This document shows positions 1-11,633 of a DNA stretch of 24,974 nucleotides, in pieces. The stretch lies in IMG/VR virus record IMGVR_UViG_2778261162_000009, one strand, 5' to 3'. This DNA is from a virus. Lineage: Duplodnaviria; Heunggongvirae; Uroviricota; Caudoviricetes. Made by a program: the position numbers and the translations under genes. The notes beneath the pieces are model-generated. The model did no database searches. It had not been told where the DNA came from and saw only the letters and a program-made list of their open reading frames with translations. Position 1 is the stretch's first letter. Each line of letters begins with the position of its first letter.

Positions 1-1002
1 TTACCCTCTATTGTCAAAAGGGTTCAATTCAACAGCAGCCTCTAAATGACCTGGAGCAAAATGCGCATAACGCATAGTCATTTTTATATCGCTATGCCCC
101 AGTATTTTTTGCAACACAAGAATATTTCCGCCCCGCATCATAAAATGACTGGCAAACGTGTGACGTAGCACATGAGTTAATTGCCCATCAGGAAGCTCGA
201 TCTTCGCTCTCTTAATTGCAGCGTCAAAAGCCTCATAACATGGTGAAAATAGCGCTCCTCGTTTTTTAGGAAGCATAGCCTGCAATTGAGGTGAAATCGG
301 TACAGTGCGGTTCTTCTTTCCTTTAGTTTTAACAAATGTGATTCGACCGGGCAGTACTTGAGATTGCTTTAATCCTTCTGCTTCACTCCACCGAGCACCC
401 GTCGCAAGCCCAATACGGACAACAACCCCCAAATCTTTATTCCGTGACTCATCACACGCAATCAGAAGGCGCTCAATCTCATCTACATACAGAAACGCCA
501 GTTCCTTTTCTTCCTCACGAAACTTGCGAATACCAGTCAGGGGGTTTTCACCAGACCACTCCCCAAGGCGCTTCAGTTCGGCAAAAACAGCATGTAGATA
601 TGACTGCTCGCGATTAACGGTTGCTTCACTAAGTTTTTTCTTCCCCTTGGGATTCCATTCTCCTGATAGCCTTCTTTCCCGATAAGTAGCAAACATATTT
701 TTGTCAAACTGAGAAGCAAATGGATCTCCCAGCCTGGAACAAATCGCCTCAAGTTTGACTTTGCGCTCTGCACCAGAGGACAAGGTTTTACCGTACATCT
801 CAAACCAACGAGCAATCAACTCAGAAAGACGAGGACCAGAACCATCTTGAAACTCGTCTCCAACTCTACTATTCATTAAACGGCGCTCATAAGAGAGCGC
901 CTCACTTTTTGTCGCAAACTGTTTACGAATGCGTTTTCCCGATACCCCGTAGGGATAACATTCGCAAAGCCATTTACCTGATGGAATCTTACGAACCGAC
1001 AT
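1..1002 (-). CDS. int: Tyrosine-recombinase integrase (P2 Int family), 333 aa; stop codon sits at the window edge
   Basis: ORF translation has integrase-like C-terminal catalytic region (…HVLRHTFASHF…MRYAHF…); position next to the repressor as in P2/186 prophages. Confidence 0.88.
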   Translation of the reverse strand: MSVRKIPSGKWLCECYPYGVSGKRIRKQFATKSEALSYERRLMNSRVGDEFQDGSGPRLSELIARWFEMYGKTLSSGAERKVKLEAICSRLGDPFASQFDKNMFATYRERRLSGEWNPKGKKKLSEATVNREQSYLHAVFAELKRLGEWSGENPLTGIRKFREEEKELAFLYVDEIERLLIACDESRNKDLGVVVRIGLATGARWSEAEGLKQSQVLPGRITFVKTKGKKNRTVPISPQLQAMLPKKRGALFSPCYEAFDAAIKRAKIELPDGQLTHVLRHTFASHFMMRGGNILVLQKILGHSDIKMTMRYAHFAPGHLEAAVELNPFDNRG

Positions 1003-1007
1003 TTTAG

Positions 1008-1355
1008 TTACTTATCACATAAATCAAATGCAGCCTTAGTGACATCCCCCAGACTCTTTTTTAACCCTGGAGCGGCATCATTATCTAGCCAAAATGGATT
1101 ATTGTTATCTAACGGTAACGCACCAAATGTTTTACCTTTTATTCGAGCCAAACCTGTAAGTGCATATAACTTATTATCGTCAAAATTCATCACATAAGGA
1201 TTACCATCAAGACACTGTAATTGAACCTCATCAGTATTAAATGGCCATACCCCATTGAAACTCTCACGTTCAATAGTTTTAAAAGGCATTGCGACGGCGG
1301 AAAAAGAAAACATAGATAAAAAAGTAACTAATAGTTGAACCTTTTTTGCTTTCAT
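1008..1355 (-). CDS. Small secreted/periplasmic protein, 115 aa, unknown function (cargo gene)
   Basis: N-terminal signal peptide MKAKKVQLLVTFLSMFSFSAVA; two Cys in mature part; AT-rich; co-oriented with repressor operon; SD-like GAGG upstream. Confidence 0.6.
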   Translation of the reverse strand: MKAKKVQLLVTFLSMFSFSAVAMPFKTIERESFNGVWPFNTDEVQLQCLDGNPYVMNFDDNKLYALTGLARIKGKTFGALPLDNNNPFWLDNDAAPGLKKSLGDVTKAAFDLCDK

Positions 1356-1384: not shown

Positions 1385-2035
1385 TTACAAATTAAAAAAC
1401 GCCCTAGAAATGACACCGCCTACCAAAACCCCTACGCAGATAAAGAATATTATTTCTTTTGGATAAAGTCGGATTAATTCTGAAGCACGAAGTCGGACTT
1501 CTGGTAAGGTCGAACTCTCTGTGTGGCTTGATGCCGATTGTTGCTCTAACCACGACAATGCAGACTGTAACTGAGAACGAGTAAGATCGTTTAAACGTCC
1601 TGTACCGAAATTGATATGGCAATACCGCAGAAGTTTTTGTCGAAGTCCACAGTCTTCACTGTTACGTAGTAATAAACTTACAAGAGCCTTACAGGCATCA
1701 TGATCTTTACATCGCTCAAGCATTGCATGCAGAAAACTCTCCGCTGTTTTATATTGATTTACTGTCATATCATCAATACCAGCTACACCAATCTCCGCAT
1801 GTACTTTTTGCCAAATAATAAACGCTTCAGTATTGCTAGCTTCTGCAATAGCAGCAACCAAGCTATTTAGCTCCTTACGCTGAGCCTTAAGCAAAGGGCG
1901 ATCGTCATCATCATTATTCGAAGGGATTGCGATATTGACGGTATGAGAACCATCATATCGCTCTATCTGAATATTCTTTTCGTGAAAATCACGCCCAGCA
2001 ACGCGATTGTTTGAACCGTTTGAGTTGACGGCCAT
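1385..2035 (-). CDS. Tail-anchored membrane protein, 216 aa, unknown function (cargo gene)
   Basis: Soluble N-terminal domain then single C-terminal hydrophobic helix (IIFFICVGVLVGGVISRAFF); strong SD GGGAGGTG 5 nt before ATG; 16 bp after repressor stop. Confidence 0.6.
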   Translation of the reverse strand: MAVNSNGSNNRVAGRDFHEKNIQIERYDGSHTVNIAIPSNNDDDDRPLLKAQRKELNSLVAAIAEASNTEAFIIWQKVHAEIGVAGIDDMTVNQYKTAESFLHAMLERCKDHDACKALVSLLLRNSEDCGLRQKLLRYCHINFGTGRLNDLTRSQLQSALSWLEQQSASSHTESSTLPEVRLRASELIRLYPKEIIFFICVGVLVGGVISRAFFNL

Positions 2036-2050
2036 GTCACCTCCCTACTA

Positions 2051-2455
2051 TCACCTACCCTTAGTTTCGTTATAGTCACGACCAGCGATACGGTTATTAC
2101 CACCAGAAATATTTAACTCACGTCCTGATGGCTGAGTTTCCTTTTCACTGATCGCACCTTTTAAAGCCCCAATCACCGCGTTTTTCACATCTAACGAAGC
2201 TGCTCGAAAGCGAGTAATCAACTCCTGCTCATCATCGTTATAAGTTTCAGGTGAGTGAATTCCCAACACAACATACTGAACATCAAGGCCAAAACGAGAC
2301 AGCGCTGCCAAATACGCAGCATCAGGAAAGCTATCTCCTTTCTCATATCTAAGCTGAGTTAGCTTTTTGACTCCACCAATGTCGCTCATGGCAACTTGAC
2401 TAAGTCCCAATCTTTCCCTTTCCTCACGCAACCGCTGACCAATATCATTTTTCAT
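2051..2455 (-). CDS. XRE-family helix-turn-helix repressor, 134 aa (candidate immunity repressor, CI/C analogue)
   Basis: N-terminal HTH_XRE pattern (IGQRLREERERLGLSQVAMSDIGGVKKLTQLRYEKGDSFPDAAYLAALSRFGLDV); divergent from the rightward early operon. Confidence 0.75.
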   Translation of the reverse strand: MKNDIGQRLREERERLGLSQVAMSDIGGVKKLTQLRYEKGDSFPDAAYLAALSRFGLDVQYVVLGIHSPETYNDDEQELITRFRAASLDVKNAVIGALKGAISEKETQPSGRELNISGGNNRIAGRDYNETKGR

Positions 2456-2530
2456 ACAAAAACCTTGACAGGTATCTTTTTTGATACCAAAATGATTTCA
2501 CGAGCTATTAGATGATCACAATATACCACT
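2456..2530. promoter_or_regulatory. Divergent lysogeny/lytic switch region with TTGACA -35-like hexamer and perfect palindrome GGTATCTTTTTTGATACC (2471-2488)
   Basis: 75-bp gap between divergent repressor and early operon; TTGACA at 2465-2470; 6-bp inverted repeat arms seen directly. Confidence 0.45.
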
Positions 2531-2737
2531 ATGAAACAAGTTCTTCACGATACCAGATCACGCATTCCGCGTAACACCGCCACAGGTCCAAGACTGGCGC
2601 TTCGGCTGTCCCTCGAGGAGCGAGCCGTCATTGATGAAATGGCAGCTAAAGAACAACGCTCATCCTCTAACATGGCGCGCATGATCTTCCTTCGCGGCCT
2701 AGAGCTAACCCAGAAAGAACAAAACAAATCTTCCTGA
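2531..2737 (+). CDS. Small DNA-binding regulator, ribbon-helix-helix-like, 68 aa (first gene of early operon)
   Basis: RLALRLSLEERAVIDEMAAKEQRSSSNMARMIFLRGLE resembles CopG/MobC RHH fold; no clear SD. Confidence 0.45.
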   Translation: MKQVLHDTRSRIPRNTATGPRLALRLSLEERAVIDEMAAKEQRSSSNMARMIFLRGLELTQKEQNKSS

Positions 2738-2753
2738 TCAGGAGGCTAGTGGG

Positions 2754-2957
2754 ATGTCAGGTATAACCATCAATATCAATGTGGATGCCCCCTATGTATC
2801 CCTGCAGAAATATGCAGAGATAACAGGTATCCCTCTTAATACATGCAAAAGGATGTTGGCTGACGGTCGAATTATTATCCGCCCCAAACGCGCCAAAATG
2901 GAAAAGCCTGAAGTAAACCTTGTGGCGATGTTAAAAGACGCTTTGGCTAACAGCTAA
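2754..2957 (+). CDS. Cox/excisionase-like HTH protein, 67 aa
   Basis: APYVSLQKYAEITGIPLNTCKRMLADGRI resembles P2 Cox HTH segment; GGAGG SD 8 nt upstream. Confidence 0.55.
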   Translation: MSGITININVDAPYVSLQKYAEITGIPLNTCKRMLADGRIIIRPKRAKMEKPEVNLVAMLKDALANS

Positions 2958-4491: not shown

Positions 4492-4514
4492 GGTTACTGG
4501 ACAAAGGGGGCGCA

Positions 4515-4718
4515 ATGGCAATTAAGCATTTTCCCGTCGTTCGCTTTACCTCCAGAGGGCGCGAATACGAGGTCGACGAACGCCTGATTACCACTATCGA
4601 CAAACATCGTTCGGAAAAGGATGCACACCACATCTACCTCACTGACGGCACTTACTTCTGCGCCACCAACGTGGCGCGAGTAAATCTTATCCGACAGGTA
4701 CAGGAGCCACGCAGATGA
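4515..4718 (+). CDS. Hypothetical early protein, 67 aa
   Basis: GGGGG SD before ATG; operon orientation. Confidence 0.5.
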   Translation: MAIKHFPVVRFTSRGREYEVDERLITTIDKHRSEKDAHHIYLTDGTYFCATNVARVNLIRQVQEPRR

Positions 4719-4981
4719 CCGTTCTGGACTACATCGCTACTCATCCGGGGTGTAGCGGCGGAGAAATCGCCGCAGCACTGAATACCCCAACCACAGCTAT
4801 TAATGCTGAGTTACGCCGACTTTGGCGCAGCGGCTTAGTCATCAGAACAAACCGCAGCACAGGTGGTCGCGCTCGCAAAACTGGAGGCCAGGCTTCTTAC
4901 CACGTAAACCCGATGCCGTTCGGGTGTAGCAATCCACTTACTCACATGTTTAACCAGCTACTGAAGGAAGCCAGAACATGA
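4715..4981 (+). CDS. Hypothetical protein, 88 aa, possible winged-helix DNA-binding protein
   Basis: ATGA overlap with upstream gene; N-terminal helix pattern suggestive of wHTH (weak). Confidence 0.5.
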   Translation: MTVLDYIATHPGCSGGEIAAALNTPTTAINAELRRLWRSGLVIRTNRSTGGRARKTGGQASYHVNPMPFGCSNPLTHMFNQLLKEART

Positions 4982-5032
4982 GCACCATCAACCACCAGAA
5001 GCTACGCGAACTGGCATTTTGCCCTGCAACGA

Positions 5033-5278
5033 ATGGCAACTCCTCAAAAATTACTGGCATTTCGCGCAATGCTCTCGCCGTCTGCTGTGCTGGCACTGCT
5101 GGATCAGCTGGAGCACGCCAGAACCACGGCTCCTGCCATTCGCCTGACGCTCCATCATGAAATCGTTGATTTCTGCGCAACGCTGGGGGCACCTGGCGAA
5201 CCGGAAACGCCGGAAGCAATGCAGCAAGAGCTGCTGCAACGCATTGACAAGGTTTTTGATTTTTTTCTGAACCAGTAA
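5033..5278 (+). CDS. Hypothetical early protein, 81 aa (true start may be ATG 4978 if a T-run frameshift is corrected)
   Basis: Protein-like ORF; ATG 5033 lacks SD, whereas ATG 4978 is translationally coupled but in another frame. Confidence 0.45.
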   Translation: MATPQKLLAFRAMLSPSAVLALLDQLEHARTTAPAIRLTLHHEIVDFCATLGAPGEPETPEAMQQELLQRIDKVFDFFLNQ

Positions 5279-5299
5279 GAAACCAGAACATGCACACAC

Positions 5300-5328
5300 A
5301 AAAAAACCGCTTGCCATGCCGCAATCGG
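5300..5328 (-). terminator. Candidate intrinsic terminator on minus strand (imperfect 8-bp stem then U7)
   Basis: Plus strand A7 followed by CCGCTTGC-catgcc-GCAATCGG; reads as hairpin plus U-run on minus strand. Confidence 0.35.
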
Positions 5329-5400
5329 TCAGGTTACATTTCCGCTGCACCTCATAAAACGGGTGCCGGGATTCTCAACCCGATACAGAGCAAAGCGCAT

Positions 5401-5421
5401 AACCGCGCCAGCGGTTTTTTT
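5401..5421 (+). terminator. Candidate intrinsic terminator on plus strand (AACCGC-gcca-GCGGTT then T-run)
   Basis: 6-bp stem with 4-nt loop followed by TTTTTTT seen directly. Confidence 0.4.
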
Positions 5422-5600
5422 GTGCGTACTGTATTGCCACGTCTTTTTCGCGTCAGAATTATGGCGGGGCGTACGGGGCCGACTTCGGTCGGGCCGGATT
5501 CTTTGCTCTCCGGTGTTGAGAACCCTGTACGTCTCGCCACCCCGAGATTCTCAACTCTGGATGGTGAGCTATTTCTATCACCGAGCAAAGAGGCCACACC

Positions 5601-5831
5601 ATGGCAAACCGCAAACAACAGCGCGCATACGCTGCGCGTCGTCACATCCAGACTGAAATCAACCGTAGACTTTTCCGCGCATCACGCGTCGCGCAAATCA
5701 TGCACATCAATATGCTGCATGAGCGCAGCCACGCGCTATCGAACATCTATTCCGCCTCTGTTTTCAGCTATCTGCCGGATGATCTGCGCGAGCTGCAACA
5801 ACTCTTCCAGCAGCAAAACAAACTCCATTAA
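5601..5831 (+). CDS. Hypothetical early protein, 76 aa, basic N-terminus
   Basis: ORF with AAAGAGG upstream; operon orientation. Confidence 0.5.
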   Translation: MANRKQQRAYAARRHIQTEINRRLFRASRVAQIMHINMLHERSHALSNIYSASVFSYLPDDLRELQQLFQQQNKLH

Positions 5832-5903
5832 TTCCTGTTCCGGGCCTTTCCTGCACCTTACGGCGGGAGGCCTTCGCACATCTGTAGTAAAGAGAATTGC
5901 AGC

Positions 5904-6293
5904 ATGATTGACGCTCATGACTTCACAAGATGGGTGCGCACACAGGACACCCGTCTGGCTCCCGTTCTTCAGGGATTATTTGATCTCTACATCCGTGGCC
6001 GTGACAACAGAGCACGCACCACAAAACCAGAGAATGCAGACACCCTTTATTTCACAGTAGACGACTGCTACCGCGTGGACTTCACACCACACGGGCTGGC
6101 GTTGCACTGCCTGACACCACACGGAGGATCACTGCTAGCGTATTACGACTCCCCGGCCTCCGTATTTGCGGCAATGCTGGCGCATTGCACTGCTGGCGGG
6201 TGTGCCTCGCTGAGTGAATACACCGCTGAATTTAACCGCCTTTCTGCCCTCTTCTCGCAGGAGTGGCAGCGCGTGACGGGATACCAGCCATGA
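5904..6293 (+). CDS. Hypothetical early protein, 129 aa
   Basis: ORF immediately upstream of and overlapping gene A start. Confidence 0.5.
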   Translation: MIDAHDFTRWVRTQDTRLAPVLQGLFDLYIRGRDNRARTTKPENADTLYFTVDDCYRVDFTPHGLALHCLTPHGGSLLAYYDSPASVFAAMLAHCTAGGCASLSEYTAEFNRLSALFSQEWQRVTGYQP

Positions 6294-9130
6294 GTGAGTT
6301 TGCATGGAGCTGGAATGAACCACGGCCAGCCATTGATCCGGCCAGATTTACGGAGCACAGGCAGGAAACTGAAACCGACCTGCAACGCGCCATCCGTTAC
6401 TACCTTGAGGCAGACAAAAAGGCTCTGGAAGAACAGGAAGCGAAGGAGGAAGCCTTTTTCGCACAATCCACCGTGGGTAAAAAACTCATGGCATCCCTTG
6501 AGGAAGCCGGACAGCGTGAAAAGCTGGCACAAAGCATCATCAGCAATCGTCAGGCAACAGAACAAGACCCGGTGGCCCGTGCTTTTGCCACACTGAAGGT
6601 GCTTCCCGTTTATCTGCGTGAACCTCTGAGCCACCACCTCTCTTTCCTGCGCAAAAAACAGGAAGCCGATCGCCAGAAAGGCAAAAAGAGCTGGCAGGCT
6701 GAACGCTACGCGCGCGGAACCCTGCGCAAAATATTCGAACGTCTGGACCGCACCGATCACCGCTGGCTGACACCGGGTTATCGCTCCCTTGCCGGACGCG
6801 AACGCCTGGACGATTTGCTTTACCTGCCGCAGCTCAACAAACACCAGATACAGACGCTGGCCACCATGACGGCGGCGATGTTCAGCAGCACCTTCGAAAA
6901 ACTCTGCGATGGCTTTGGCGCGACTGATGGCGAACTGACCATGGATGTAACGCTGAAGGCGTATCAGATGCTGGCCCGCATGGCGTTACACCTGCACGCC
7001 ATGCCTCCACATTATGACGCACTGACAACAGACAAAGACCGGAGGAACGAACCGGACACGGAGCTGCTGCCGGGCGCAATCCTTCGCCTGACCTGTGCGG
7101 AATGGTGGAAACGCAAACTGTGGCTGTTACGTTGCGAGTGGAGAGAAGAACAACTCCGCGCCGCCTGTCTGGTTTCCAGAAAAACATCACCCTATCTGAG
7201 CCAGGACGCGTTAAGCGAGTTTCGCGCACAGCGCGAGAAAACACGCGATTTCCTGAAAAGTTTCATGCTGGAAAATGAAGACGGGTTCACGATTGATCTC
7301 GAGACGGTGTATTACGCGGGAGTAAGTAACCCGGTTCACCGTAAGGCAGAAATGATGGCCACCATGAAGGGACTGGAACTTCTGGCCGAAGCCCGTGGCG
7401 ACAGAGCGGTGTTTCTGACTGTCACCTGCCCGTCAAAATACCACGCAACAACGGAGAACGGTCATCCGAACCCCAAATGGAACGGGGCCACCATGCGCGA
7501 CTCCAGCGATTACCTGGTTAACACGTTTTTTGCGGCGGTCCGCAAAAAACTGAACCGCGACGGTCTGCGCTGGTATGGCATCCGCACGGTGGAGCCTCAC
7601 CATGACGGCACTGTGCACTGGCACATGATGGTCTTTGCACATCCGGACGAGATTGAAACCATCGTGTCCCACGTCTGCGATATTGCCATTCAGGAAGACC
7701 GCCACGAGCTGGGCGATGACATAACTCCGCGTTTTAAGGCGGAGTACGTAGACGGCTCAAAAGGCACACCAACCAGCTACATCGCCACCTACATCGGAAA
7801 GAACCTGGACAGCCGCGCCGTGGATGGCATCGACCCGAAAACGGGCAAGCCACGCGTTGACCACGAAACCGGAAAATCAATGGCCGAGAGCGTGGAACGC
7901 GCCATCGGCTGGGCGCGCCTTCACCGGGTCCGCCAGTTCCAGTTCTTTGGTATCCCCTCCCGTCAGGTGTGGCGTGAACTGCGTCGCCTTGCCAGCCAGA
8001 TGGCACGCAACCCGGAAGGCCCGCAACGGCTGAAGGATGACGCAATGGACGCGGTACTCGCTGCCGCTGATGCCGGATGTTTTGCCACCTACATTGAGAA
8101 ACAGGGTGGCGTACTTGTTCCACGCAAGGACTACCTGATTCGCACCGCCTACGACCTCGCAGATGAGCTGAACGATTACGGCGAACAGAGCGTACAGATT
8201 TACGGGATCTGGTCACCACTCATCGGGGAGTCTTCCCGTGTGTGCACACATCCGGATAACTGGAAGCTGGTAAGACGTAAACCGGAAGCGGAAGACAGCG
8301 CCCGCGAAAATGGTTTTGACCTTCAGGGCGGCCCTGCCGCCCCTTGGACTCGTGGCAATAACTGTCCCCGTGTACAGGAAACGGACAACAACGGGACAGA
8401 ACAGCCGGAAGAACGGCCAGCACCGTGGCCGCAGCTTCCTGACGGCGTTGATGTGGATGAATGGATGCGCTCACTGAAACGGCACGAACGCCGGGCGCTG
8501 ATGCGTTCGCTTCGTGACAAACAGGCAAAAAACAGCAGTGATGAAATGCAGAGCTGGACACAGAGCCGCAAACAGCAGCGGCCTTTGCCTGATAACTACG
8601 AATTACTCGCTAAAGAATGGCGGGAATCTGCCGAATCTCTCGGCCTGCATATCGGTGAACAGCAGATGCAGCACCTGTTACGGGGCGGCAGCCTGTACGT
8701 TGACGGCAGCATCATTGCACCGCAGGGATTTGAAATTGTACGCAAACCGGATACCCGCCCGGACAGCCGAATCACGCAGCTCTGGCAGCGCCTGAGCCGT
8801 AATCACGGCGTAAGCAGCACAGAGATCCGCCATAACCCGGTCGCCAGCTATCTGGAACAACTGGGGGCATCAGACCCCGAAGCCGCCGCACGTCTGGCAT
8901 CCACACTTCAGCAGGACCAGAACACCATGAAAACCCCCGTTACCGTGCTTTCTGACATGCTGCGCGCCATCCGTGACGCAGAGCACGCACAGAGAATCAG
9001 TGAAACCACTGAACGCGCCCACCGCAAAGCAGACCTGCTGCGGGGTAGCCTGACCAGTGGAAACAAAAAACAGACAGAAACGGGACTCACAAATCCCGTA
9101 AATGAGCAAAAAACGCGCCGCGATATATGA
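6290..9130 (+). CDS. A: Replication initiation protein, P2 gpA-like rolling-circle endonuclease, about 946 aa
   Basis: Motif VEPHHDGTVHWHMMVF (HxH metal-binding motif of gpA family) and YIATYIGKN (catalytic Tyr region); start ATG 6290 overlaps upstream stop. Confidence 0.88.
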   Translation: MSEFAWSWNEPRPAIDPARFTEHRQETETDLQRAIRYYLEADKKALEEQEAKEEAFFAQSTVGKKLMASLEEAGQREKLAQSIISNRQATEQDPVARAFATLKVLPVYLREPLSHHLSFLRKKQEADRQKGKKSWQAERYARGTLRKIFERLDRTDHRWLTPGYRSLAGRERLDDLLYLPQLNKHQIQTLATMTAAMFSSTFEKLCDGFGATDGELTMDVTLKAYQMLARMALHLHAMPPHYDALTTDKDRRNEPDTELLPGAILRLTCAEWWKRKLWLLRCEWREEQLRAACLVSRKTSPYLSQDALSEFRAQREKTRDFLKSFMLENEDGFTIDLETVYYAGVSNPVHRKAEMMATMKGLELLAEARGDRAVFLTVTCPSKYHATTENGHPNPKWNGATMRDSSDYLVNTFFAAVRKKLNRDGLRWYGIRTVEPHHDGTVHWHMMVFAHPDEIETIVSHVCDIAIQEDRHELGDDITPRFKAEYVDGSKGTPTSYIATYIGKNLDSRAVDGIDPKTGKPRVDHETGKSMAESVERAIGWARLHRVRQFQFFGIPSRQVWRELRRLASQMARNPEGPQRLKDDAMDAVLAAADAGCFATYIEKQGGVLVPRKDYLIRTAYDLADELNDYGEQSVQIYGIWSPLIGESSRVCTHPDNWKLVRRKPEAEDSARENGFDLQGGPAAPWTRGNNCPRVQETDNNGTEQPEERPAPWPQLPDGVDVDEWMRSLKRHERRALMRSLRDKQAKNSSDEMQSWTQSRKQQRPLPDNYELLAKEWRESAESLGLHIGEQQMQHLLRGGSLYVDGSIIAPQGFEIVRKPDTRPDSRITQLWQRLSRNHGVSSTEIRHNPVASYLEQLGASDPEAAARLASTLQQDQNTMKTPVTVLSDMLRAIRDAEHAQRISETTERAHRKADLLRGSLTSGNKKQTETGLTNPVNEQKTRRDI

Positions 9131-9206: not shown

Positions 9207-10166
9207 ATGAAAATTTGTATCGACGACGGCTCCACCAACATCAAGCTGGCATGGACTGAGAACGGCAAACGCCGCAACGCCATCAGCCCGAACAGCTTCA
9301 AGTCGGAATGGTCTGCGCCGTTCGGTGGCACGCAGCCCGCGAACTACATGCTTGATGGCGTGCGCTATGGCTTTGATCCGGTCAGCGATCGCTTTGTCCA
9401 GACGACCGACACGCAATACCAGTACAGCGATGTGAATGTCATTGCCATTCATCACGCGCTGGTCAAATCAGGCATCACGCCACAGGAGGTGGATGTGGTT
9501 GTCACCCTGCCACTGAGCGAGTATTTCGACACAAACGCACAGCCGGACATGGCCAACATCAGCCGCAAAAAAGCGAACGTTATGCGCCCGGTGGAGTACC
9601 AGAACGGCGAAGCATTCACTATCCGTAACGTACGGGTTATGCCTGAATCCATTCCGGCTGGCTTTAAGGCACTGGCTGACATGAGTCCGTTTGAATCCCT
9701 GCTGATTGTGGATTTGGGCGGAACCACGCTGGATGTGGCAAAGGTTCAGGGGCAACTGGCAGGTATTAGCCAGGTGTTTTGCGATCCACACGTAGGCGTT
9801 TCTCTGATGGCCGATGCCGTACTGTCGGTGATGGCCACTAACGGTATGCGTACCAGTCACCACATCGCCAATACCATTATCGAACATCGCCATGATGAAG
9901 CCTGGCTGCGCCAGCACATCCACAATGACGCGCATTACGCCAGCCTGATGGCGGTTATTCGTGAAAAGGAAGAAACACTGAAACAACGCGTGATCCGCGC
10001 GCTGGCGGTTTTTTCGGGTTACGGGCGGGTGATGGTTGTCGGTGGCGGGGCGGAGATTGTGGCACCCGCTATCCGCGAAGCCTGCGGAGTTAATGCGACT
10101 TTCATCGCGGACGGGGTGCCACAGTTTGCTCTGGTTAATGGGCTGTACGCAATGGACAAGGAGTAA
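9207..10166 (+). CDS. parM: ParM/StbA-like actin-type ATPase, 319 aa
   Basis: Strong resemblance to plasmid R1 ParM from memory: MKICIDDGSTNIKLAW, SPNSF, YSDVNV…HHAL, VMPESIPAG, DLGGTTLD, VGGGAE, LVNG. Confidence 0.85.
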   Translation: MKICIDDGSTNIKLAWTENGKRRNAISPNSFKSEWSAPFGGTQPANYMLDGVRYGFDPVSDRFVQTTDTQYQYSDVNVIAIHHALVKSGITPQEVDVVVTLPLSEYFDTNAQPDMANISRKKANVMRPVEYQNGEAFTIRNVRVMPESIPAGFKALADMSPFESLLIVDLGGTTLDVAKVQGQLAGISQVFCDPHVGVSLMADAVLSVMATNGMRTSHHIANTIIEHRHDEAWLRQHIHNDAHYASLMAVIREKEETLKQRVIRALAVFSGYGRVMVVGGGAEIVAPAIREACGVNATFIADGVPQFALVNGLYAMDKE

Positions 10167-10843: not shown

Positions 10844-11161
10844 TTATGCAACCTGACAGGAATGTTCTGCCGTCGCAGTAACAACCCCACCGGAATACCC
10901 AAACTTAAAATCCCACCCCAGGATGTTTAGCATGATAAACAGTCGATCAATGGTATGATTATCTAACTTACCATTAATGATTTCGCTTACTCTTGGTTGG
11001 GTAGTTTCCAGCAATTCAGCAGCTTCTCGCTGGGTAAGACCGCGCTCCTGAATCATTTTTCGGATAATAACCATTAATTGGGCCCGGATGTGTTTATCAC
11101 TAGCTTCATTTACAGAGCTACTTGATGACGCATAAGGGTTTTTGACTACGACGAATTCCAT
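10844..11161 (-). CDS. HigA-like XRE-HTH antitoxin, 105 aa
   Basis: HTH pattern GLTQREAAELLETTQPRVSEIINGKL; downstream of Gp49-family toxin gene. Confidence 0.7.
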   Translation of the reverse strand: MEFVVVKNPYASSSSSVNEASDKHIRAQLMVIIRKMIQERGLTQREAAELLETTQPRVSEIINGKLDNHTIDRLFIMLNILGWDFKFGYSGGVVTATAEHSCQVA

Positions 11162-11231
11162 AACTCTCCAGCCTTAATCAGCGATGTTGCTGACATTGAT
11201 TATGTTATATCAGATTTGAGATACCTGCAAG

Positions 11232-11633
11232 CTATCTTAAGCCATTTTTACGACGATACTCCACTAATTGTTTGTATCTTGCGGCAGCTGTCTCATATTC
11301 TTTTTTTGACACACCATTTGTCTTTTTCTTAAATGTATGAAGTATGTAAACAGACTCCGCAAATTTCGCAACGTAAATCATACGATAAGAATCACTACTC
11401 TTGATGGTTAATTGCATTGCGTAGCGACCAATCGTTTCCCGCATTGATTTTTTTTGAGCAGGTGGAACCCCCAAGGCATCATCACCATCCACTGGAAAAT
11501 CGAAACTGTCGAAAGAATGAGGACAATCGCTCTGCAGTGCAACAAGCTCAAAATTTATCCTTTCTCGAACAGCTTCAGGATAACTATCAATTTGTTTCTG
11601 AATTTTATCATTCCAATATGTGATGTCTTTCAC
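11232..11633 (-). CDS. HigB/RelE-superfamily toxin of the Gp49-like family, 133 aa
   Basis: C-terminal signature RMIYVAKFAESVYILHTFKKKTNGVSKKEYETAAARYKQL; GTG start with GAGAGG SD; toxin-first order typical of HigBA. Confidence 0.65.
   Translation of the reverse strand: MKDITYWNDKIQKQIDSYPEAVRERINFELVALQSDCPHSFDSFDFPVDGDDALGVPPAQKKSMRETIGRYAMQLTIKSSDSYRMIYVAKFAESVYILHTFKKKTNGVSKKEYETAAARYKQLVEYRRKNGLR

Follow-up and report, generated by a model that had tools for sequence, protein, structure and literature searches.

The DNA considered here, referred to as the window, is a stretch of 24,974 nucleotides from the IMG/VR virus record IMGVR_UViG_2778261162_000009 (Duplodnaviria; Heunggongvirae; Uroviricota; Caudoviricetes) and, judged by its P2-type genes, corresponds to the leftmost 25 kb of a P2-like prophage, in which a helix-turn-helix (HTH) gene occupies the place of the immunity repressor. 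On the minus strand, this predicted repressor gene is followed by a gene for a predicted tail-anchored inner-membrane protein of the Flk_N family, and the C-terminal tail of the first product closely resembles the N-terminal head of the second. The elements of this gene pair are listed below, with structural assignments from AlphaFold2 (AF2) models and their predicted local distance difference test (pLDDT) scores.

2051-2455, minus strand: gene for a predicted XRE-family prophage repressor of 134 aa, with an HTH domain at residues 1-64, two helices at 74-106 and a disordered tail at 105-134
2066-2116, minus strand: repressor tail motif LNISGGNNRIAGRDYNE, residues 114-130, AF2 pLDDT below 50
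2054-2065, minus strand: basic C-terminal end TKGR of the repressor
2036-2050, minus strand: intergenic spacer of 15 nt, TAGTAGGGAGGTGAC, with the ribosome-binding site GGAGG inside
1385-2035, minus strand: gene for a predicted tail-anchored inner-membrane protein of the Flk_N family, 216 aa (PHROG 5825, E 4e-103)
1979-2029, minus strand: membrane-protein head motif, copy 1, VNSNGSNNRVAGRDFHE, residues 3-19, AF2 pLDDT below 50
2066-2104 (tail) and 1979-2017 (head), minus strand: 13-residue core of both copies
1919-1978, minus strand: degenerate second head pseudo-repeat KNIQIERYDGSHTVNIAIPS, residues 20-39, matching in alignments the one head motif that short-headed relatives have
1520-1897, minus strand: helical Flk_N-like domain, predicted to be cytoplasmic, residues 47-172
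1391-1462, minus strand: predicted C-terminal transmembrane anchor, residues 192-215, seen as an AF2 helix of hydrophobic sequence and kept in relatives

The HTH protein is identified as an XRE-family temperate-phage repressor by its fold and by its position at the genetic switch, which suggest a role in repression and immunity. Its matches to the Pfam families HTH_31 (E 8e-5) and HTH_3 (E 1.4e-3) both lie under the gathering score, while PHROG 8, a transcriptional regulator family, is matched at E 2.5e-14 and a profile search of the PDB returns the N-terminal domain of the P22 C2 repressor as the top match (E 1e-6). PADLOC gives only weak HTH matches, and the NCBIfam match to the RstR family is likewise weak (27 bits). 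In the AF2 model, built from a 57-sequence alignment, a confident five-helix HTH domain (residues 1-64) and the helices at 74-106 precede a tail (105-134) with pLDDT below 50. The gene is divergent from Arc-like and Cox-like early genes and, in Mu-like relatives, from ner-like genes. The membrane protein carries an Flk_N domain but is not Flk, the window protein matching the NCBIfam Flk profile with E 8.6e-16 and 58 bits over profile positions 20-149 only, against an equivalog cut-off of 353 bits (PRK10715); the Flk_N domain itself, PF27202, is a precomputed annotation on its homologues. Its AF2 model (56 sequences) consists of a disordered segment at residues 1-43 (pLDDT below 50), a confident helical region at 47-172 and a transmembrane helix at 192-215, and PADLOC finds no match to it. 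A type II toxin-antitoxin system with an XRE antitoxin was considered and rejected, as Pfam, NCBIfam and PADLOC assign no toxin family to the 216-aa protein and the HTH gene occupies the prophage repressor position.

The two termini that face each other across the spacer read ...ELNISGGNNRIAGRDYNETKGR at the end of the repressor and MAVNSNGSNNRVAGRDFHEKN at the start of the membrane protein. When both whole proteins are compared by Smith-Waterman alignment with BLOSUM62, the best local alignment pairs repressor residues L114-E130 with membrane-protein residues V3-E19, with 10 of 17 positions identical. The last 32 residues of the repressor and the first 32 of the membrane protein align with a score of 62, compared to 20.5±4.5 and a maximum of 46 in 5000 composition-preserving shuffles of the head (z = 9.3). 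The peptide motif that the original prediction saw duplicated across the gene junction is thus present, and the positions proposed for it, 2054-2100 and 1990-2030, describe the same feature, displaced by some 10-15 nt. The diverged direct repeat that had been claimed for the DNA also exists, in weak form: the 39-nt cores share 27 of 39 bases, against 18.2±1.3 and at most 24 in 300 shuffles. Different codons are used at five of the nine identical residues of this core, and the DNA repeat is a side effect of the conservation of the proteins. Both window genes lie in one frame, separated by TGA TAG TAG, then GGAGGTGAC, then ATG (2036-2053). This common frame looks coincidental, the relatives having gaps in all frames, and a fusion of the two genes by read-through or frameshifting is ruled out by the three stop codons and by the variable spacing in relatives. 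A search for terminator-like sites between 900 and 2800 found none.

Both copies of the motif are conserved in their respective families. The 120 membrane-protein homologues listed, whose sources include E. coli, Klebsiella, Serratia, Erwinia, Enterobacter and Citrobacter, all start M-x-V-N-S-x-G-x-x-N-R-x-[AS]-G-R-D-[FY]-x-E, and most repressor homologues, across the Enterobacterales, end [IV]-N-V-S-G-x-G-N-R-[VI]-A-G-R-D-[YF]-[NH]-E-x-K-K, so that the alignment of homologues, in which absence of the motif from either protein would have pointed to chance similarity, bears the original prediction out. Residues G7, N10, R11, D16 and E19 of the head are invariant among 56 homologues. Remoter repressor homologues have differently worded tails rich in G, N and Q. 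Just past the motif every repressor tail closes with a basic cluster (KK, KKNK, KRKR or RRRKTK; TKGR in the window), which might serve in membrane or DNA binding. The Flk_N family is a small one, 1.84 billion proteins yielding only 140 clusters of it at 50% identity, and its members of 190-300 aa are nearly all headed by the motif, in the general form Q-x-F-x-G-x-V-G-x-V-A-G-R-D-[IV]-[IV]-N; the chromosomal Flk proteins of 320-350 aa are without it. The second pseudo-repeat of the head is clearer in relatives than in the window, as in AAGRDFHEGNI / LIGRDVLNITI (locus L013) and AAGRDFHEKNI / FISRDFVNIVI (L038). Some partners have a Cys-rich C-terminal domain in place of the transmembrane anchor. 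Matching-head partners of other types than Flk_N with a transmembrane segment occur at L211 (2499-2699), L209 (2417-3184) and L199 (2001-2858); the L211 partner is a protein of 66 aa with a matching head and without an Flk_N domain, and other atypical partners combine a coiled coil with a Cys-rich C-terminal domain.

The two genes travel together. One-genome-per-species contigs and IMG/VR supplied 110 Flk_N loci, of which 109 have a repressor homologue directly upstream on the same strand, and in a further set of loci most of the few apparent exceptions have a tail-bearing repressor one gene further upstream. The gaps between the pair genes range from -8 to +35 nt, with a 4-nt overlap in several lineages. 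The remoter repressor homologues lie in Mu-like prophages, beside a divergent ner-like gene, an rve transposase and a MuB-like ATPase (AAA), and the gene after the repressor again encodes a product with the PF27202 (Flk_N) domain. Only the repressor and partner genes are common to the P2-like and Mu-like contexts, and the pair is a module shared by two unrelated phage groups. This makes the label of cargo gene, given earlier to the membrane-protein gene, doubtful, for the gene is not a free moron but an obligate companion of one repressor type. The motif is restricted to this pair: the tail-less repressor homologues at L112, L207 and L208 have no Flk_N-type partner downstream, which implies that repression itself can do without the tail, whose presence follows that of the partner. 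No natural HTH-Flk_N fusions were found among 120 repressor matches and 260 Flk_N-family proteins. Isolated phages are nearly without the module, its only carriers among them being Escherichia phage 520873 and, as distant cases, three Ralstonia phages; a metagenome scan yielded six loci. Some loci depart from the simple arrangement. In Salmonella enterica (L206, 767-2801), three tandem repressor paralogues precede a single Flk_N gene, two of them with the intact tail NRVAGRDYNEKK and the third with an internally deleted one (NISDTGNNENK). Symbiopectobacterium loci L012 and L018 contain frameshifted Flk_N pseudogenes, and the L012 repressor tail is without the RD pair (AGNNFHE).

The sequence of the motif varies between loci, and tail and head vary together. 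At least ten sequence classes occur, each matching within its own locus (tail first, head second).

INVSGxGNRVAGRDYNE and VNSTGEQNRIAGRDFNE
QIFNGDISGQFAGNQIIN and QEFNGTAQGQFSSRDIIN, in Pectobacterium, Dickeya and Brenneria
GEGQIAGGNIY and AEQIAGRDIY, in Gilliamella
IHGNNHGLVVDA and ICGDNLGNVVNA, in Orbaceae
QTFHGSVGQSVAGSITN and QDFHGEVGQAAGGDINN
QQFNGPVGTVTSGDVVN and QQFHDRVHQVAAGDIKN, in Pseudomonas aeruginosa
QTFHGSVGQSVAGSITNKSGV and QDFHGEVGQAAGGDINNYGV
QVFHQAPIGDIFGRDLV and QEFSGPVGDVAGRDII
VFHGDVGQVVNAD and KFDGPVGQAIQAD
HGDVGQNVDASQGGTFTV and DGSVGAAVNAETGATVHI

The matrix of alignment scores between classes is dominated by its diagonal (A-A 54.8 against at most 29; B-B 47.7 against at most 25), and over 26 non-redundant pairs, obtained by collapsing 192 pairs, cognate combinations average 47.9 and non-cognate ones 30.0, a cognate mean that none of 20,000 permutations reached (p<5e-5). 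Drift after one duplication would leave a locus's own head no closer to its tail than any other, and the cognate excess therefore points to concerted evolution or co-selection. Given a concatenated query, MAFFT set repressor tails onto the membrane-protein head unaided. The match is held at the level of protein rather than DNA, since synonymous sites have diverged in nine representative classes: nucleotide identity of the motifs is 49-69%, the same codon is used at 36 of 79 identical residues, and recent gene conversion is not visible. The match also persists at some loci with an extra open reading frame (ORF) between the genes. In Ralstonia phage YO077_2 (Peduoviridae; ON170130; L205, 2399-3935) the repressor and Flk_N-like genes are even convergent, with a Zn-ribbon/transmembrane ORF between them; their motifs (tail ...GGSNNVQIGSV..., head ...DGNGNVQIGKV...) form the only pair with a VQIG tetrad, which is like the RHIM core. 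Inserted ORFs and convergent genes remove explanations by scar, slippage or translational coupling. The suggestion that the repeat is a recombination scar accordingly fails, both on this ground and on that of the synonymous divergence. A duplication that created the N-terminus of the membrane protein is possible as a remote origin, and it leaves the class-by-class matching unexplained, because a single old duplication followed by independent drift does not produce it. Several classes can occur in one host genus, Pectobacterium having both A2 and B, which argues for specificity of the phage pair over a conserved host target; of the earlier proposal of a shared interaction motif, the part that survives is thus recognition within the phage pair, favoured by the matching classes, while a common host partner or protease is disfavoured.

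The pair belongs to a series of four head-to-tail genes on the minus strand, encoding the repressor, the 216-aa protein, a DUF2511/YebY-like protein and the integrase, and is flanked by the following features.

1-1002, minus strand: P2-type tyrosine integrase (Pfam Int_N E 5e-32, Phage_integrase E 2.5e-22)
1008-1355, minus strand: DUF2511/YebY-like secreted protein, the next gene in the same operon (Pfam DUF2511 E 2.3e-6; PHROG 2950)
2456-2957, plus strand: switch region, with a promoter-like site at 2465-2493, the Arc-like gene at 2531-2737 and the Cox-like gene at 2754-2957

Further downstream are genes for a P2 gene-A-type (GPA) replication protein, portal, terminase and capsid. The G+C content of the lysogeny module (1000-2500) is 35-43%, that of the replication region (4500-9000) 53-59%, a contrast that suggests a mosaic origin of the repressor/Flk_N/DUF2511 block. 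Among 5426 complete E. coli genomes, 525 match the window DNA, most of them at 99% identity or more. The accessory region holds a gene for a ParM-type actin-like segregation protein (9207-10166; StbA_N E 1e-81, ParM C-domain E 6e-69), unusual cargo for an integrating phage, and, on the minus strand at 10844-11633, what is probably a type II toxin-antitoxin pair, made up of a Gp49/HigB-like toxin gene (11232-11633) and, after it, an HTH_37 antitoxin-like gene (10844-11161). Between 4950 and 5900, numerous long overlapping ORFs without a family match lie on both strands.

Matching ends of neighbouring gene products are a known signature of amyloid signalling. The motifs of fungi and the bacterial amyloid signalling sequences (BASS) 1-10 were found through motif sharing between the C-terminus of one protein and the N-terminus of another, encoded by adjacent collinear genes (bioRxiv 10.1101/2020.01.06.895854), and in the prophage-borne E. 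coli defence pair Bab/Agp, BASS11, the motif pair has been shown to work (bioRxiv 10.1101/2024.11.07.622273). The window pair resembles these systems, and HET-S/NWD2, in several respects. A short motif lies at the C-terminus of one product and the N-terminus of its neighbour's, the genes being separated by a tiny gap or sharing a 4-nt overlap, and such matching ends of adjacent or closely linked genes are found in the window and at more than 190 loci. The motif core averages about 18 aa (range 10-31), in keeping with the approximately 20-25 residues rich in Q, N, G, V or I and poor in K, P and L by which amyloid motifs are recognised, with G enriched 2.5-fold, N 2.05-fold and V 1.6-fold, K (0.26x), L (0.15x) and P (0.20x) depleted, and Q and I not enriched. 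Both copies lie in flexible terminal extensions outside the globular domains (residues 1-43 of the membrane protein and 105-134 of the repressor, each with AF2 pLDDT below 50). Many motif families exist, each matched within its pair, one partner is membrane-directed, and the location in a prophage is shared with Bab/Agp. As for pseudo-repeats, the main-class head has two and the other classes have one, and the doubled copy is on the partner with the N-terminal motif, the reverse of HET-S/NWD2. The partners differ, however, in being an XRE HTH repressor and an Flk_N tail-anchored protein rather than an NLR, STAND or TPR sensor and a Bell, HeLo, TIR or CHAT effector; Pfam and NCBIfam detect none of these sensor or effector domains, and PADLOC nothing beyond the HTH. 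An unusual degree of charge marks the main class (R, R, D, E), and the motif core is nearer 18 than 25 aa. Pfam gives no RHIM match at E<=10 in eight proteins or peptides, leaving no sign of RHIM or BASS3, and the literature searched yielded neither a link of amyloid motifs to HTH proteins or prophage repressors nor a tail-anchored regulator of prophage induction. By analogy, the pair would be best classed as an amyloid-signalling-type motif pair with new partner domains.

Other systems resemble one or the other half of the arrangement. The Flk protein (Fluke/RflH) of Salmonella and E. coli likewise combines an Flk_N helical domain, facing the cytoplasm, with a C-terminal tail anchor, but it is 320-350 aa long, has two Flk_N copies and has neither a G/N-rich head nor a partnered repressor; Flk acts as a brake on the flagellar secretion-specificity switch (PMC13344023). 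Closer to the repressor side stands the phage CTXphi, with an XRE-type repressor, RstR, that is inactivated by a small phage-borne partner. Its antirepressor RstC reportedly makes RstR aggregate; RstC is, in contrast to the membrane protein of the window, soluble, satellite-encoded and without a membrane anchor, and to our knowledge RstC and RstR have no matching terminal motif. Membrane proteins are known to sequester regulators, Mlc being held by PtsG, with PutA as a further example, and the window pair would be comparable insofar as a membrane protein holds a DNA-binding repressor off the nucleoid; these cases, however, use contacts between folded domains, are not known to share a repeated terminal peptide and do not come as phage modules. 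In lambda cI-rexA-rexB, a membrane-protein gene is co-transcribed downstream of the immunity repressor in the lysogen, the same gene order as in the window. We know of no motif shared between the Rex proteins and CI, nor of an obligate pairing of Rex with one repressor type across phage families, whereas the window pair is motif-matched and obligately paired across such families.

From these observations, a direct and cognate-specific association of tail and head that couples the lysogeny repressor to its membrane partner is probably the best explanation of the match. The flexible repressor tail, with its G/N/V-rich core of approximately 18 residues, and the like-sequence head of the membrane protein would form the two halves of a recognition device, both made from the same operon and kept alike at the protein level by selection. 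Most likely, tail and head would pair directly, like with like, as beta-strands, in a small beta-zipper or a stacked-strand co-assembly, and repressor molecules would thereby be tied physically to the membrane partner of their own locus. Through this link the membrane protein could hold the repressor, titrate it or turn it off and so act as a built-in sensor or antirepressor of the lysis-lysogeny switch; the opposite direction, in which a signal passes from the repressor to the membrane protein as effector, seems less likely. The direct contact, its beta-type geometry and its regulatory output are suggested by the sequence pattern rather than observed, and several points weigh against the proposal. 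Which protein would regulate the other, and with what output, is purely something we infer. In the AF2 monomer models both motifs stay unstructured, apart from a helix of low confidence at head residues 8-19. Inside the large NRxAGRD class another partner often outscores the cognate one, and three prophages of one genome (L122, L163 and L175; IMG/VR 2687453785) carry nearly identical motifs, which indicates that specificity is coarse, so cross-talk between these co-resident prophages would be possible. At the Pseudomonas locus L028 an Flk_N protein is present beside a repressor with a different, helical C-terminus that has no evident tail. Finally, the main class has the same charges at the same positions in both copies (R..GRD..E), which sits uneasily with parallel in-register stacking and is better accommodated by antiparallel strands, R facing D, or by a shared binding site.

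On account of this charge pattern, templating of the amyloid kind, which is one form of direct pairing, is rated low. In a true amyloid, prion-like pair, clustering of the heads or of the DNA-bound tails would nucleate a cross-beta fold, onto which the other partner would be templated, and self-propagating aggregation would then switch the master repressor and trigger the lysis-lysogeny decision or an exclusion response. This seems rather unlikely.

The same charge pattern fits a model in which tail and head never touch and instead bind a single site on some third surface, for which the Flk_N domain is the most plausible candidate. The head would then autoinhibit in cis and the repressor tail compete in trans, another phage or host protein being a possible alternative site. 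Two ligands for one site would also be expected to co-vary while preserving their identity, the divergence of the Flk_N domain between classes (27-35% identity) would allow the pocket to co-vary with them, and Flk itself is a proposed binder of the cytoplasmic domain of FlhA, an interaction examined by two-hybrid in PMC13344023. The AF2 model from the 56-sequence alignment, however, leaves the head (residues 1-43, pLDDT below 50) undocked on the helical domain, and the 66-aa partner at L211 has a matching head and no Flk_N pocket, both of which count weakly against such mimicry; a third phage protein is improbable as the site, with only repressor and partner common to the P2-like and Mu-like contexts. 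Altogether we regard this explanation, the main rival to direct pairing, as unlikely. Considerably less probable still is a shared degron or host-factor tag, by which one host machine, a protease of the membrane or cytoplasm or a chaperone, would read both termini and turn the proteins over jointly. The motifs are terminal and disordered, as degrons are, and C-terminal tails control the proteolysis of some phage repressors, for example of Mu c with ClpXP, but a conserved host machine would not require many locus-matched classes, several of them in one host genus, and N-terminal and C-terminal degrons are normally read by different adaptors.

Explanations that give the similarity no function fare worst. 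A neutral relic of an old duplication, slippage or recombination, with occasional gene conversion, could draw on the weak direct DNA repeat (27/39) and on the fact that the copies lie only about 50 nt apart in many loci. It is already largely refuted, and hardly credible, given that synonymous sites have diverged in nine of nine classes, that key residues are invariant in dozens of homologues, that the match survives an inserted ORF or convergent genes and that loss of the tail coincides exactly with absence of the partner. Both termini are G/N-rich, which might favour a chance resemblance of two low-complexity sequences; the z of 9.3 against composition-preserving shuffles and the recurrence of the pattern in more than 190 loci refute this and leave it a negligible prospect.

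Judged from the sequences, the tail-head match is a conserved, co-evolving matching-ends module that joins a lysogeny repressor to a tail-anchored membrane protein, with direct pairing as the proposed mechanism. If this pairing is real, it would provide a simple and portable wiring of the master repressor of a temperate phage to a membrane-anchored partner, used by Peduoviridae-like and Mu-like phages and present in approximately one in ten E. coli genomes (525/5426). It would extend the principle of matching terminal motifs, so far associated with NLR-type sensors and pore-forming effectors, to the control of lysogeny transcription, and the co-varying classes, as natural specificity swaps, could possibly supply orthogonal peptide-pair parts for synthetic biology. 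Should the amyloid form of pairing hold, a transcription factor would be the effector of amyloid signalling, and P2-like and Mu-like phages, which lack LexA-type self-cleaving repressors, would have a new induction pathway. More generally, direct pairing of tail and head would offer a route to understanding how prophages with repressors that lack a LexA-like cleavage domain sense when it is time to exit.

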